From a virus (lineage: Duplodnaviria; Heunggongvirae; Uroviricota; Caudoviricetes): a stretch of DNA of 26,225 bases. Position numbers and translations under genes: made by a program. Positions 1,082 to 25,174 of the stretch are shown piece by piece. A model generated the notes under the pieces. The model made no database searches and was not told where the DNA came from. It worked only from the letters and a program-made list of their open reading frames with translations. Numbering within the stretch: position 1 is the stretch's first letter; each line of letters opens with the position of its first letter. The stretch lies in the IMG/VR virus record IMGVR_UViG_638341087_000002; one strand, written 5' to 3'.

Positions 1082-4000
1082 TCAACGGATACTGATGCCG
1101 GAAGCCGCTTTTTTGGTCACAATCACCGTACAGTCGGTGATATTGCCTGCCCCCTGATTGCCTTTCTGGTAAATCTTAAACTCCAGAGTGACGCTACCTC
1201 GCCCACTCGGCATATCAATAACCGCACTGTAACTACCGGGAATGGCCCCTTTAGTTTCTCTGGATGCGATTAATACGCCGTTTTTGCGAACTTCAAATCC
1301 ATAACCCGTGTACCTTGTACCTCCCGGATTATTACCACTTCCCGGATCGGTATACGCTATACCGTTAAAAATAATGGGCGGAATAATAATCTGACGGTCA
1401 AAGTTATGATCATCGCTGATGGTGACGGTAACCGTCCCGTCTGGCGTTTCCGTGTTACCCCACGTACCGACTTTTTTCGGGAAGGCTTTTGATACAGCTT
1501 TAACGAAATCCCCTCTGACCTGGGTCGCCTCCAGCATGCCCTTAATCGTACAGTTCTCACTTATCGTGACATTGTTGAGCGTCCCGGAGTTCGCATTCAC
1601 GTTACCGCTGATATCAGCGTTTTTCGCCGTCAGCCGCCCGTCCGGTGTCAGGGAAAATGCCGGTGGATTTCCACCACTGGTAATGGTCGGGGCCGTCAGA
1701 CGCTTCAGGAACACGTCGTTCATAAATATCTGATTGCCCTGCGCCACAAACATCGGCGTTTCATTCCCGTTTGCCGGGTCAATAAACGCGATACGGTTAG
1801 CGGCAACCAGAAACTGGCTCAGCTTGCCTTCTTCCGTGTCCTCCATGCTGAGGCCAATACCCGCGACATAATGTTTGCCGTCTTTGGTCTGCTCAATTTT
1901 GACGCCCCACATGGCATTCCACTTATCACTGGCGTCCTGCCACTCTTTCGAAAACTCCTCCAGTCTGCTGGCGTTATCCTCCGTCAGCTCGACTTTTTCC
2001 AGCAGCTCCTTGCCGAGATGGGATTCGGTTATCTGGCCTTTGAAAAAATCCAGGTAACCTTCCGCATCATCGCTCGCCTGACCGACAGCCTCCACGAATG
2101 CCGATTTGCCAACGGTGTTCACGCTGCGGATATAAAAGTAATAATCATGGCCCGGTTTGATATTGATACTGGCGGCTATCCAGTACATCCCCGTGCCAAG
2201 ATAGCGGGCTGTGGTTTCAACCTGCCTGATATCGGTAATCCGCTTTTCCGAAAACCAGAACTCAAACTGTACCGTCGGATCATAAACCGCAAGATGCGGC
2301 GTGGCAGTTATCTGAAAATAGCCCGGCGTCAGCTCAATCTGTGACGGCGCTGCCGGTGCGGCAATCCGGAACGATACCGATGCCGGATCGCCCTGCTGTC
2401 CCCACGCATTTACCGCCCGGACTGTCAGCCTGTAGTTCCCCAGCGCCAGCTGCCTGAAGCGGTATGCGGTTTCCGCCGCCCGGGCCGTGCTGACCAGCCG
2501 CTCACTGCCGTCATCCGCTGCCACGGTCAGGCGAAGCAGGAAACTCACGCCCTTCACCACCTTCGGCGTGTCCCAGCGGGCCAGTACCTGATACTCCCCG
2601 CTGTCTGCGGTGACTTCGGCTGTCAGGTGCTGCACCGCTGGCGGCGTGACACCATTCACCGTGCCGCTCTGGTCGCCGTCAAAGTGCGCCCCGTTATCCA
2701 CGATGGCTTCTTTCTCCGGCACATGCTGCACTGCCGTGATGGCAAAGGTACCGTCCGTGTTTTCCCGGATGGAGACACAGCGGAACAGGCGACGACGCAG
2801 TGACGGCAGGGAGAGTCCCCATACACCGTATGTCTCCACACCATCAGGCAGGGTGCTGACCTGTATCCGGTCCGGCGCGGGGTGTGCAGTGATGGCCACG
2901 CTCACCGGCTTACCGCTGCCGTTAATCAGGTTCACCGTGGCGGCACCTGTCTCCGGCAGTGTCACCTCACGGTCCAGCGTCAGGGTGCGGCTGGCGGCAT
3001 CGATGGACAGGATACGTCCGCCGGTCATGGTCCCGGCATAGTCGTTATCACAGATTTCAATAATGTCACCGGGTGTGTGACGCAGCCCCTGTGACCCGAG
3101 CGTGAAATCCACCGTCTGCGTTTCCAGCAGTCCGGTCTTTATCACCCACAGCCCGGCACGGTGGGCCTGACCGCGACTGGTGCAGCCGAACGCATCCATC
3201 TTCAGCAGGTTGCGCCCGTAGCGCAGTATGGCTTCCGGGTCTTCCACCAGTTCCGTGGAGGTCTGCCAGCCGTTCTGCGGGTCGACGTAACTGACCTCCA
3301 CCGCAGTATGACGGTCCTTCAGGGCGCTGAAACTGTAGCGGAATCCCACACCTTCATTGTCAGCCACCACATCACTGTTTGTGTAGGGCCACACCACATC
3401 TGACGGACGGTCCTGCACAAACGTCAGCGTCTGCCCGTTCCATACCGGCATACAGCGCATCGCCGAGCAGAAATCACTGAGAACGTCCCACGCCTTACGC
3501 TGTTGTGACAGGTACGCATTAAAGGTCATCCGCGGCTCTGTGCCCCCGAAACCATCCGGGACCGTCTGGTCGCAGTACTGCCCGATGGCATACAGCGCCC
3601 ACTTGTCCACATCCGCCGCCCCCAGACGTTTTCCCATTCCGTAGCGCGGGTGGGTCAGCATGTCCCACAGGCACCAGGCAGGGTTGTTGCTGTATGCCGG
3701 TTTCAGGCTGCCGTCCCAGATGCCGCTGTACGTGCGTTTTTCCGGGTCATAGTTTGACGGTACCTGAATGATGCGACCGCGGATATGGTAGTTCACCGTC
3801 ATCTGCTGACCGCCAAACTGCTCCGCATCCACCTGCAGCCCCACAATCGCCGTGTTCGGGTAGCACTGTTTCACATCGATGATTTCGGTGTATGACGACC
3901 AGAGCGTCTTATTCTGCAGCTGGTCCGTGGTGCTGTCCGCCGTCTCCCTGACCATCCGGATGTTAAAGGGGCGGGGAGGCAGATTATCCAGAATCACCGA

Positions 4001-4495
4001 CGCCAGGTACTGTGAGGTGGTCTTGCCGTTAATGGTGACATCCTTTTCCGTCACCCAGTTACCGTTACGCTGCAACTGAATCAGCAGGCGGACGGATGTC
4101 GGGTTTCGGTCACCCTTTGACGTGGTCTGCACCAGTGACTGCACCCCGAAGGTGACCCGCAGGCGGTCAATGTTCGCGGATGTAATGGTGCGCGTCACCG
4201 GCTTTGCCTTCGTCACTTCCACGCCCAGTGCGGTTTCCGCCCCGGAGGACTCAAAGCCTTCAGGTGGTGTCTGCTCCTGCTCCCCGGCGCGCCAGACCGC
4301 TGTCACACCATGTATCACAGGATTACCGTCCGTGTCCGTCAGCGGGGTTTTGTTCACCAGGATACTCTGCAGCCCCTTCACCGGACCTTCCACCGGTCCC
4401 TCACCGATGGCATCAATCACGCTCATCATCTGCGTGGATTTGAGATTGTCCTTCGCCTCACGCGGTGTGTGCCCCTTGCCGCCACCTTTACCCAC
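1082..4495 (-). CDS. J: Tail tip / host specificity protein J (central tail fibre)
   Basis: Track ORF 1082-4546; high similarity along its length to lambda J as remembered ([17 protein letters not shown]..., ...[41 protein letters not shown]...). Start moved to the GTG at 4493-4495 ([15 protein letters not shown], matching lambda [15 protein letters not shown]) with a GGAG-rich SD upstream. Confidence 0.9.
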
Positions 4496-4530
4496 TCTGC
4501 TCCCCTCTCCTGTCTGATGTCTGAATCTGT

Positions 4531-4568
4531 TTATGCCAGAAAACAACAGGCACCCCGGAGGGTGCCTG
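4531..4568 (-). terminator. Candidate intrinsic terminator inside the I-J intergenic insertion
   Basis: Minus-strand hairpin CAGGCACCC-TCCG-GGGTGCCTG (9-bp GC-rich stem) followed by TTGTTTTCT; lies directly upstream of the J ribosome-binding site. Confidence 0.4.
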
Positions 4569-4570
4569 TG

Positions 4571-4690
4571 TCATGACGGAATAAAATTTCTGAAACTCTT
4601 CACATTTCCGGCAATTGCCTGTAGCCGCAATAATGACGCTGCGTTACTTTTTTGATGCCTGAAAAATAACTCCATAACGTTAATCTTCAT
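4571..4690 (-). CDS. Hypothetical 39-aa ORF in the I-J intergenic insertion
   Basis: ATG at 4688-4690 preceded by GGGAGAG SD; translation MKINVMELFFRHQKSNAASLLRLQAIAGNVKSFRNFIPS; flanked upstream by a hairpin and downstream by the candidate terminator. No recognisable similarity. Confidence 0.25.
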   Translation of the reverse strand: MKINVMELFFRHQKSNAASLLRLQAIAGNVKSFRNFIPS

Positions 4691-4735
4691 CGTTCTCTCC
4701 CGCAGCTCCGCTAACTCTGCGGGATTTTTTTATTT

Positions 4736-5416
4736 TCATCCCCGCCCGATAACCACCACTTTCCCGTCTCCGCCCTCATCACGGGTGCTGATGTCCTGGG
4801 ATATCCGTCGTGAACCAACCAGCATTTCACCATAAGGCACCGGCATAGGGTTACCCTGGGCAATCATATTGTCCAGCGACGAAAAATACGTGTTCTGTTT
4901 ACCGTTATCCGTTGCGCGGTAATCCGGTGTTTTTGCCTTCGGTGCCAGCATCTGGGCCACACCGCCCAGTATCATGCTGGCCCCCAGTGAGAACAGCATC
5001 GTGGTGGCAGTCAGCGCTCCGGCACTCAGGGCTGCGCCCCACAACGCCATCGTTGCGCCGGCGGTGAAGAAAGAGCCCACGATGGCTGCTGCCCCCAGCA
5101 CCACCTGAAAAACACCATTTCCCCCGGCCCCTGCCAGCCGCGGTACAATATGAATCACGGCCCTCCCGCTCAGTGGCTCATGAAGACGGGCATACACCGC
5201 CTCCGGCGCGGTATCCTCACCGGCAATACGTATCTGGTACCAGCCTTCGTTCATCTGACCGCGGAATCCCGGCATCTGCAGCGACAGGGCACGGATGGCC
5301 TCCGCTGCCGTGTTCACATACAGGCTGATGCGGCGACCAAATCGTTGTAAATCCCCGTGAAGGCAGATGCGGACCAGTGGCGGTGACGCCAGACAGAATG
5401 CGTTCGTCGTTGCCAT
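4736..5416 (-). CDS. I: Tail assembly protein I
   Basis: 226-aa ORF; strong similarity to lambda I as remembered (ARICLHGDLQRFGRRI..., ...KQNTYFSSLDNMIAQGN...GEM.VGSR...VVVIGR). Confidence 0.9.
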   Translation of the reverse strand: MATTNAFCLASPPLVRICLHGDLQRFGRRISLYVNTAAEAIRALSLQMPGFRGQMNEGWYQIRIAGEDTAPEAVYARLHEPLSGRAVIHIVPRLAGAGGNGVFQVVLGAAAIVGSFFTAGATMALWGAALSAGALTATTMLFSLGASMILGGVAQMLAPKAKTPDYRATDNGKQNTYFSSLDNMIAQGNPMPVPYGEMLVGSRRISQDISTRDEGGDGKVVVIGRG

Positions 5417-23948: not shown

Positions 23949-24157
23949 GCGCAGCCGAAAATAAAGGGATAACGATGATAGTTTGAGAAAAACAGAAATA
24001 ACACTTTTGTGGCAAAGCATGGTGCCGGGTGCCTCCCGGTGAATTCAGTATCAGCACCTGAATCCGCGATTACCCCATATTCCTTCTTGCTGATTGCCCC
24101 ACCGCACAGGGGGATTCACCATGCAGAAGTGTTTTTAATAAACAGCAAACAAAAAAA

Positions 24158-24922: not shown

Positions 24923-24999
24923 TGGCGCGTTGTAGTGGAGTCGAACCACTGACCGATTGCTTAGAAGGCAATTGCTCTGTCCGACTGAGCTAACAACGC
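24923..24999 (-). tRNA. argN: tRNA-Arg (anticodon UCU, reads AGA/AGG)
   Basis: Hand-folded cloverleaf: acceptor GCGTTGT/ACAACGC, D-arm GCTC..GAGC, anticodon stem ATTGC/GCAAT with loop CTTCTAA, T-arm AGTGG-TTCGACT-CCACT, discriminator G, encoded CCA. Confidence 0.8.
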
Positions 25000-25012
25000 A
25001 TGATGCTGATAA

Positions 25013-25089
25013 TGGACCGCCATCGGGGACTTGAACCCCGCGCAGCCAGCTTCGAAGGCTGGCGCTCTGTCCCGATGAGCTAATGGCGG
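25013..25089 (-). tRNA. argO: tRNA-Arg (anticodon UCG, reads CGA/CGG); atypical C1:G72 and U73
   Basis: Hand-folded cloverleaf: acceptor CCGCCAT/ATGGCGG, D-arm GCTC..GAGC, anticodon stem CCAGC/GCTGG with loop CTTCGAA, T-arm CGGGG-TTCAAGT-CCCCG, encoded CCA. Gene symbol assigned by position only. Confidence 0.65.
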
Positions 25090-25098
25090 TATGTGATA

Positions 25099-25174
25099 TG
25101 GTGGCCCTTGCTGGATTTGAACCAGCGACCTGGCGATTATGAGTCGCTCGCTCTCACCACTGAGCTAAAGGGCC
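25099..25174 (-). tRNA. ileZ: tRNA-Ile2 (anticodon CAU, lysidine-type, reads AUA)
   Basis: 76 nt GGCCCTTTAGCTCAGTGGTGAGAGCGAGCGACTCATAATCGCCAGGTCGCTGGTTCAAATCCAGCAAGGGCCACCA; near-identical to E. coli ileX/ileY as remembered; anticodon loop CTCATAA. Confidence 0.85.

Follow-up and report, generated by a model that had tools for sequence, protein, structure and literature searches.

The window analysed here is a stretch of 26,225 nucleotides from a Caudoviricetes virus (IMG/VR record IMGVR_UViG_638341087_000002), and its minus strand carries 2 neighbouring lambda-type tail genes. The tail assembly gene I (4736-5416) was taken from the list of open reading frames (ORFs), matches Pfam Lambda_tail_I (E 1.2e-14) and is labelled I in VT1-Sakai, and the tail tip gene J (1082-4495) encodes a protein with six GpJ Pfam domains. 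Gene I ends with the TGA at 4738-4736 and J begins with the GTG at 4495-4493, upstream of which an SD-like sequence, GGAGAGGGGAG, occupies positions 4510-4500 of the same strand. Between the 2 genes lies a spacer of 240 bp (4496-4735), as the original prediction had recognised. Its premise that I and J abut or overlap in lambda was wrong, since the lambda spacer measures 60 bp and includes a terminator-like hairpin before J. The possibility that J starts further upstream, and that the spacer belongs to J, was considered and rejected: a longer J from TTG 4546 would start within the hairpin that precedes J (hairpin 2), while the product from GTG 4495 aligns colinearly with lambda J starting at residue 1, and the identical start is annotated in VT1-Sakai and in Sakai Sp15.

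Two hairpins and a 39-codon ORF with an ATG start had been predicted in the spacer, and all 3 are found where they had been placed. The hairpins exceed what is expected from shuffled sequence, with 2 terminator-like sites detected by a terminator scan against 0.4 in shuffles, and the spacer folds with a z-score of -2.9. Taken together, the results reported below indicate that the spacer very probably consists of 2 juxtaposed parts, an inserted small RNA (sRNA) gene beside I and an ancestral junction of the lambda type beside J.

Hairpin 1, the one next to gene I, has the features of a Rho-independent terminator when it is read on the plus strand, where its form is CCCGCAG-N11-CTGCGGG-A-T7. Both a terminator scan and a pattern search identified this terminator at 4699-4731, with a GC-rich stem of 7-8 bp (4699-4705 paired with 4717-4723), a loop at 4706-4716, an A at 4724 and a T7 run (4725-4731) that is separated by four bases from the I stop codon. 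The pattern of hairpin plus T-run appears once in the 26-kb window and in 0 of 100 shuffles. On the tail-gene strand (4723-4699), the same hairpin follows an A-run and lacks a downstream U-run. Hairpin 1 is therefore a terminator on the plus strand only, which implies that some transcript opposes the tail operon.

To characterise this transcript, we used a covariance model (R1) built from 16 other variants of the sRNA, none of them of the window type. The model has a single match in the window, at 4648-4731 on the plus strand, which covers its full length with 83.5 bits and an E value of 1.5e-13. In the terminator stem all 7 pairs are kept in 16/16 sequences, with a loop that varies in sequence and length; the stem is invariant across the variants and shows no covariation. 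The GC-rich stem followed by an A and U7 (4725-4731) also fits the long-U terminator of the family, that is, an Hfq-binding 3' end. By its sequence the window copy belongs to the PasB / EcOnc22-24 family of prophage sRNAs, and from the covariance model and homology we place its gene, with a predicted 5' end, at 4657-4731 on the plus strand, opposite to the tail operon. Its homology and position are established, as are its orientation and its terminator. An Rfam scan had been suggested as a check, and no family of Rfam 15 matches 4496-4735 either at the gathering score or at E <= 1, the scan giving only a chance snoRNA match inside J; PasB itself is without an Rfam model. The locus is an already described sRNA gene and in that sense ordinary, though unannotated and absent from Rfam, and what we add are modest details, namely a candidate CRP box, arrays of sRNA modules and a link with sodC.

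The first described relative, PasB of EPEC strain E2348/69, is an RNA of 83 nt encoded on the minus strand of NC_011601.1 at 1466343-1466261, in prophage PP6 (PMC8550237 Table S6). The plus strand of that genome carries both tail genes, with the end of I at 1466255 and the start of gpJ at 1466496; PasB is thus encoded opposite to them in an I-J spacer of 240 bp, and hairpin 1 and U7 form its 3' end. The probe used to detect it on Northern blots, AATCCCGCAGTGATCGCGGAGCT (PMC8550237 Table S6), corresponds to the tail-sense strand of hairpin 1. PasB depends on Hfq for its stability, has 37 trans interactions in RIL-seq with core and island transcripts, and is present at a higher level in the non-activating than in the activating condition (PMC8550237). 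Besides that study of 2021, the papers found on PasB comprise a preprint from 2026 that deals with its distribution (bioRxiv 10.64898/2026.05.13.724894), and no function is assigned to the RNA in this literature.

PasB and the window sRNA have in common the I-J slot of a lambdoid prophage, a 240-bp spacer and the antisense orientation, and also the terminator stem CCCGCAG/CUGCGGG with U7, the blocks AACUCC and UUAAUCUUC and the layout of the promoter region. The 2 RNAs are 75% identical (64/85 aligned positions), and the window copy differs from PasB by a 6-nt deletion near the 5' end and by CUCCAU instead of CUCCUU in the block complementary to the Shine-Dalgarno sequence. The window copy thus represents a distinct sequence variant, the targets of which may differ from those of PasB.

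A closer match is found in enterohaemorrhagic E. coli Sakai. EcOnc22, EcOnc23 and EcOnc24 were reported as orphan Hfq CRAC peaks on the plus strand of prophages Sp15, Sp14 and Sp11, respectively (Tree et al. 2014, PMC4104026 Table S2), and EcOnc22 was seen on Northern blots as an RNA of ~85 nt that is destabilised in a delta-hfq strain (PMC4104026). Their location between I and J is not described in the 2014 paper (PMC4104026), and a 2021 review lists their targets as unknown. In NC_002695.2 each of the 3 peaks maps to the I-J spacer of its prophage (Sp15, Sp14 or Sp11), with the tail genes on the minus strand. The coordinates of PMC4104026 refer to an older Sakai version, for which we calibrated a shift of ~+136 to +143 with AsxR and AgvB1; at 2.2-2.9 Mb, the peaks lie inside the spacers at any shift from 0 to +142. 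After a shift of ~+140 they correspond approximately to window positions 4647-4721. The Sp11, Sp14 and Sp15 spacers are identical to the window over 4644-4731 and differ from it at only 3 positions, 4500 and 4501 in the ribosome-binding region of J, and 4643, which is G in the window and A in Sakai and lies at -14 of the predicted promoter. Expression and Hfq dependence have thus been shown in the literature for copies identical or related to that of the window.

Other sRNAs of EHEC prophages, AgvB/AsxR and HnrS, are likewise short Hfq-binding cargo sRNAs located in late lambdoid regions and often present in multiple copies. We rejected AgvB/AsxR as the identity of the window sRNA on the basis of their different locus, beside PR'/stx rather than between I and J, the lack of sequence similarity and the absence of an Rfam AgvB/AsxR match. 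HnrS (EcOnc10-12) was promising for its multicopy spread, but it maps ~5 kb from the PR' site and not at the I-J junction, and it too lacks sequence similarity to the window sRNA. The sRNA svsR of prophage NC-SV, which is located at the 3' end of cI, is unrelated.

Of 5426 complete E. coli genomes, 1842 contain DNA similar to the spacer, some of them at as many as 10 places (up to 10 copies in O157:H7), and the corresponding spacers of VT1-Sakai and further Stx phages show 97-99% identity to it. Among the matches listed, no annotated feature lies under the spacer match in RefSeq E. coli genomes annotated with PGAP. The practical interest lies in annotation: a spacer present in roughly one complete E. 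coli genome out of three is blank in PGAP, or filled with spurious hypothetical proteins in some phage records, and has no Rfam entry, although the sRNA that it encodes has been detected experimentally and depends on Hfq. To compare junctions, we recovered 120 of them by a search with protein I and measured their spacers, which fall into length classes of 60 bp (the lambda type), ~235-260, ~343, ~424, ~715 and 851 bp; the 34 unique spacers of the 235-260-bp class, to which the window belongs, were aligned.

Relative to the 60-bp spacer of lambda, the window has ~180 bp of extra DNA, and this cassette has 41% G+C, compared with 57-60% in I and J. Longer spacers hold further cargo. Those of 421-425 bp contain two sRNA modules and the 715-bp spacer contains three, each module with its own CRP-like box, whereas the 851-bp spacers and a 714-bp spacer from Citrobacter contain a Cu,Zn superoxide dismutase gene (sodC) that is antisense to the tail operon. 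In the 851-bp class sodC replaces the box and the upstream (P1-type) hexamer, and the sRNA body and terminator remain. As judged from its sequence, the inserted sRNA cassette has the anatomy of a moron, with extra DNA, deviant composition, its own terminator and a predicted promoter, and the description of the insert as a small inserted cassette is thereby upheld. The cassette shares with morons of the lambda type (Juhala et al. 2000, cited in PMC4104026), and with examples such as the prophage sodC at the I-J junction, the location of extra DNA between neighbours known from lambda, the deviant composition and the terminator of its own, and its homologues are, like morons, expressed from the prophage. 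It differs from a typical moron in that its cargo is a non-coding RNA and not a protein gene, and in that it points against the late operon.

We then compared the promoter regions of 39 unique modules aligned on the sRNA strand. These have a conserved order of elements: TCTGA-N6-TCACA with A/T-rich flanks, 24 nt that vary in sequence but are constant in length, xATxAT, and GCGTTAnnnT, a motif kept in the 39 unique modules. A scan with the sigma-70 consensus found no promoter on either strand, and the promoter proposals made here therefore rest on conservation and not on consensus strength. Two hexamers are candidates for the -10 element on the plus strand. P2, TACTTT (4645-4650; of the form TANNNT, with G4643 at -14), is predicted from conservation, and the alternative P1, AATAAT (4629-4634), is conserved as xATxAT and reads TATAAT (perfect in some variants), TATCAT or GATAAT elsewhere. 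P1 is conserved in PasB-type modules and is absent from a paralogous module (junctions L041 and L043), which has a different promoter sequence with TAGATT located exactly 48.5 nt from its box and nothing resembling a -10 element at the P1 position. A P2-type start is one base off the RNA-seq 5' end of EPEC PasB. Since the PasB 5' end and the spacing in the L041/L043 module agree, P2 is most likely the -10 element and G4657 the predicted start. Transcription from ~4657 to the terminator at 4699-4731 would produce an RNA of ~75 nt, or of 91 nt if it began at P1 (~4641), and neither value fits exactly the ~85 nt seen on Northern blots for the identical Sakai RNA.

The CRP-like box, TGTGA-N6-TCAGA, is located at 4589-4604 (22-mer 4586-4607, centre 4596.5). 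Its core matches the consensus at 9 of 10 positions; no variation is seen in its half-sites among the 34 unique spacers of the class, whereas two of the six bases between them vary. The centre of the box lies 48.5 nt from P2 in every one of the 39 modules except 1-2, once three mis-hits of the regular expression are allowed for, and the same box-to-hexamer spacing is observed in the paralogous modules. This places the centre of the box at -60.5/-61.5 from the predicted start, and the classic position of a class I CRP site is near -61.5. Cores of this kind occur twice in the 26-kb window, compared with 0.9 expected. On these sequence features, activation of the sRNA by cAMP-CRP through the candidate box has, in our estimation, an even chance of being real; the conservation of the box could also reflect recent common descent or the binding of another factor. 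In the experiments with PasB, the non-activating condition was presumably LB and the activating one a DMEM containing glucose, in which case the lower PasB level in the activating condition would fit catabolite control.

On the other side of the cassette, hairpin 2 (4536-4569, minus strand) is a terminator-like structure situated before J, with a stem-loop at 4569-4546 and a T-rich tail at 4545-4536. It consists of a GC-rich stem of 9-10 bp, ACAGGCACC-CTCCGG-GGTGCCTGT, followed by TGTTTTC. The hairpin had been predicted as a component of the insert; it is present with its T-rich tail, and it is not part of the insert, as lambda has a counterpart. The 60-bp spacer of lambda contains AAACCGCC-TGCG-GGCGGTTT, then TGTCATTT and then the J ribosome-binding site, and hairpin 2 has the same position and architecture as the hairpins of the lambda and Citrobacter spacers. 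Within the 240-bp class one pair of its stem is C-G in some variants and U-A in others; intermediates with U.G and a single C.A recombinant also occur. Where a spacer holds two or three sRNA modules, hairpin 2 is found once, beside J. The lambda counterpart and this single copy beside J indicate that hairpin 2 belongs to the ancestral junction and not to the insert. Late lambda transcription is carried out by a Q-modified polymerase that ignores intrinsic terminators. We infer a role for hairpin 2 as an intrinsic terminator that would stop RNA polymerase unmodified by Q and would be read through in lytic growth.

The remaining predicted element, the 39-codon ATG ORF (4571-4690, minus strand), had been proposed as a gene preceded by a Shine-Dalgarno sequence, and the whole region as an attenuator controlling J. 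Short hypothetical proteins are annotated at this place in two phage records, and that of PhiR12_1 is the 39-codon ORF. In the attenuator reading, translation of the 39-aa leader would decide whether transcription terminates at hairpin 2 before J, and the arrangement looks suggestive: the SD-like GGGAGAG lies 7 nt upstream of the ATG, the stop codon (4573-4571) lies 1 nt from the hairpin-2 stem, and the ORF ends at an identical TGA in four lineages. Alignment of the junction across phages, which had been recommended as a check, does not bear out a conserved ORF. Of the 34 unique spacers, all of which keep the stem of hairpin 1 unchanged, 11 have lost the ATG, and in the other 23 the ORFs measure 17-54 aa, most of them frameshifted, with unrelated C-terminal halves and no frame maintained; the 39-codon ORF has no Pfam match. 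The frame shifts likely come from a mid-ORF homopolymer run that differs in length between variants and reads T5-T9 at the promoter discriminator of the sRNA strand. What conservation there is finds its explanation in the sRNA of the opposite strand. The apparent conservation of the first ten codons reflects only their complementarity to the most conserved single-stranded block of the sRNA, GUUAAUCUUCAU, and GGGAGAG forms the 3' arm of the terminator stem, which is invariant, so that of the proposed hairpin with a 3' arm overlapping a Shine-Dalgarno sequence the hairpin stands and the Shine-Dalgarno sequence does not. We judge the ORF, which runs opposite the sRNA and its promoter, to be non-coding, and the ORF and its 'SD' to be by-products of the sRNA's complement. 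On the structural side, hairpin 1 has no U-run on the tail-gene strand. Hairpin 2 stands by itself, free of alternative pairing, in both the minimum-energy and the centroid structure, although in the window variant the ORF stop does abut its stem. Hairpin 2 exists in lambda without any ORF, and the Q-modified polymerase that makes the late transcripts is blind to intrinsic terminators according to established lambda biology. We consider an attenuator extremely improbable. Hardly more credible is an sRNA of the tail-gene strand itself, formed by the conserved block and hairpin 2, which would end at ~4540 and derive from I as a 3'UTR-type product or from a promoter of its own. The succession of AAAUUUUAUUCCGUCAUGAC, a GC hairpin and a U-rich tail does resemble an Hfq-binding module, and the AAAUUUUAUUCCGUCAUGAC stretch is the best conserved part of the spacer; but the Hfq CRAC table has peaks in these spacers on the plus strand only (PMC4104026), the promoter scan found none on the minus strand, the block is repeated with each antisense module while hairpin 2 occurs once beside J, and lambda has the hairpin without the block.

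A third alternative accepts the antisense sRNA and gives it its main job in cis, where on induction it would pair with the late I-J mRNA and lead to RNase III cleavage or to altered expression of J (and of the downstream lom and fibre genes), its trans targets being secondary. In many prophages the sRNA gene indeed occupies this one place inside the late operon, on the opposite strand, and over ~75 nt its RNA is perfectly complementary to the late mRNA. Nevertheless, the RNA is abundant in uninduced cultures and the RIL-seq interactions of PasB are in trans, the presence of sodC or of 2-3 sRNA modules at the same junction points to a cargo slot rather than to a control region of J, and lambda has no such sRNA. 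We therefore regard a main role in cis as improbable.

We favour the reading in which the ~180-bp AT-rich insert beside I, transcribed on the plus strand and antisense to the tail operon, would supply a trans-acting cargo sRNA. Its homologues are made in uninduced lysogens, bind Hfq and pair with many host and island mRNAs (PMC8550237, PMC4104026), and it is from their presence without induction, their Hfq dependence and the 37 interactions of PasB that the trans-acting character follows. For phage tail gene control, current understanding is left unchanged. The sRNA has 2 conserved single-stranded blocks, GUUAAUCUUC and AACUCC(U/A)UAA, the latter matching the complement of a strong Shine-Dalgarno sequence, and both are likely pairing regions. 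Pairing at ribosome-binding sites would then be the most likely mode of action. A search of the window itself for targets of the block ATGAAGATTAAC gave 4 matches to its complement with <=2 mismatches, compared with 1.3 expected, none of them convincing.

A second, undescribed type of module found at these junctions carries ACCUCCUUA, which we take to be the sequence at the 3' end of 16S rRNA. A more general proposal can be formulated from here: every sRNA module of the I-J junction, whether of the PasB type or of the ACCUCCUUA type, would be driven by CRP as a class I promoter, the junction would constitute a catabolite-controlled slot occupied by 1-3 modules or by sodC, and the RNAs would mimic the anti-Shine-Dalgarno sequence against host mRNAs and tune J on induction. 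We advance this as a speculation that is unlikely to hold in full. The CRP box at fixed spacing, the blocks complementary to the Shine-Dalgarno sequence and the occurrence of sRNA arrays or sodC at the junction provide handles on the function and timing of PasB. In the EcOnc22-type variant, the blocks named for target pairing are AACUCCAUAA and GUUAAUCUUC.

The spacer between tail genes I and J differs in content among the junction loci recovered by search with protein I (given here by L-number), and some carry more than one antisense sRNA. Tandem antisense sRNA modules, two or three per spacer, were found at L041, L043 and L046 (spacers of 421-425 bp) and at L047 (715 bp), and every module of these arrays has its own CRP-like box. 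The array modules include a second sRNA type, characterized by the terminator CTCCCG...CGGGAG-T6 and by the motif AACUCCUUAAGG or ACCUCCUUAAGG, which is similar to the 3' end of 16S rRNA; this second type is apparently undescribed so far.

At other loci the junction contains a Cu,Zn superoxide dismutase gene, sodC, placed between I and J and antisense to the tail operon (Pfam Sod_Cu, E 3.9e-32), in spacers of 851 bp (L059, L078-L084, L089 and L039) or, in Citrobacter meridianamericanus (L028), of 714 bp. In the 851-bp class, sodC stands in place of the CRP-like box and of the upstream promoter hexamer of the sRNA. The TANNNT hexamer is still present in this class, as are the sRNA body and its terminator, so that the sRNA of these spacers may be a 3' product of sodC.

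The spacers of 336-343 bp (L005, L058, L060, L066, L067, L092, L096, L108, L109, L112, L114, L116, L119 and L120) share the PasB module, the antisense sRNA gene, and its box with the window, and their J-proximal part is unrelated to that of the window: the terminator-like hairpin found there on the tail-gene strand, AAAACCCCGGTATC...GATACCGGGGTTTCT, is another one, and the start codon of J is ATG. In the 260-bp spacer of L057, the CAGACAT motif is expanded in a short tandem, TCAGACATCAGACATCAGACATCAGACA, immediately ahead of the J ribosome-binding site, which makes the pre-J segment about 14 bp longer.

A single-base difference was observed within the predicted sRNA promoter, where position -14 (window 4643, + strand) is G in the window and A in 3 of 3 copies from the Sakai prophages. 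Since G at -14 is the extended -10 base, the copies could differ in how strongly they are expressed. Compared with NC_002695.2, the current Sakai RefSeq record, the sRNA coordinates of the 2014 list (PMC4104026 Table S2) are offset by about +136 to +143 bp, as established for 1.27 and 1.94 Mb at least, and direct look-ups in that record therefore reach the wrong place.

The protein I search also returned lambda's 60-bp spacer at L007-L020, L022, L030, L032, L034 and others, with an identical spacer sequence at 18 lambda-type loci. These loci lie on low-coverage contigs, some of about 48.4-48.5 kb, and most likely represent lambda DNA contamination or spike-in; the assemblies concerned come from unrelated taxa (Neobacillus, Pseudomonas, Shewanella, Bradyrhizobium and Enterococcus, among others).

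Elsewhere in the window, an Rfam match to STnc100 (23981-24153, - strand, 100.8 bits), which the 2026 preprint (bioRxiv 10.64898/2026.05.13.724894) links by structure to PasD, has three tRNA genes (24926-25174, - strand) upstream of it and falls within the Q/late-promoter cargo region, where no stx genes were seen. An Ail/Lom outer-membrane protein gene (412-1011, - strand; Pfam Ail_Lom, E 2e-121) follows J directly, an arrangement also found in lambda.
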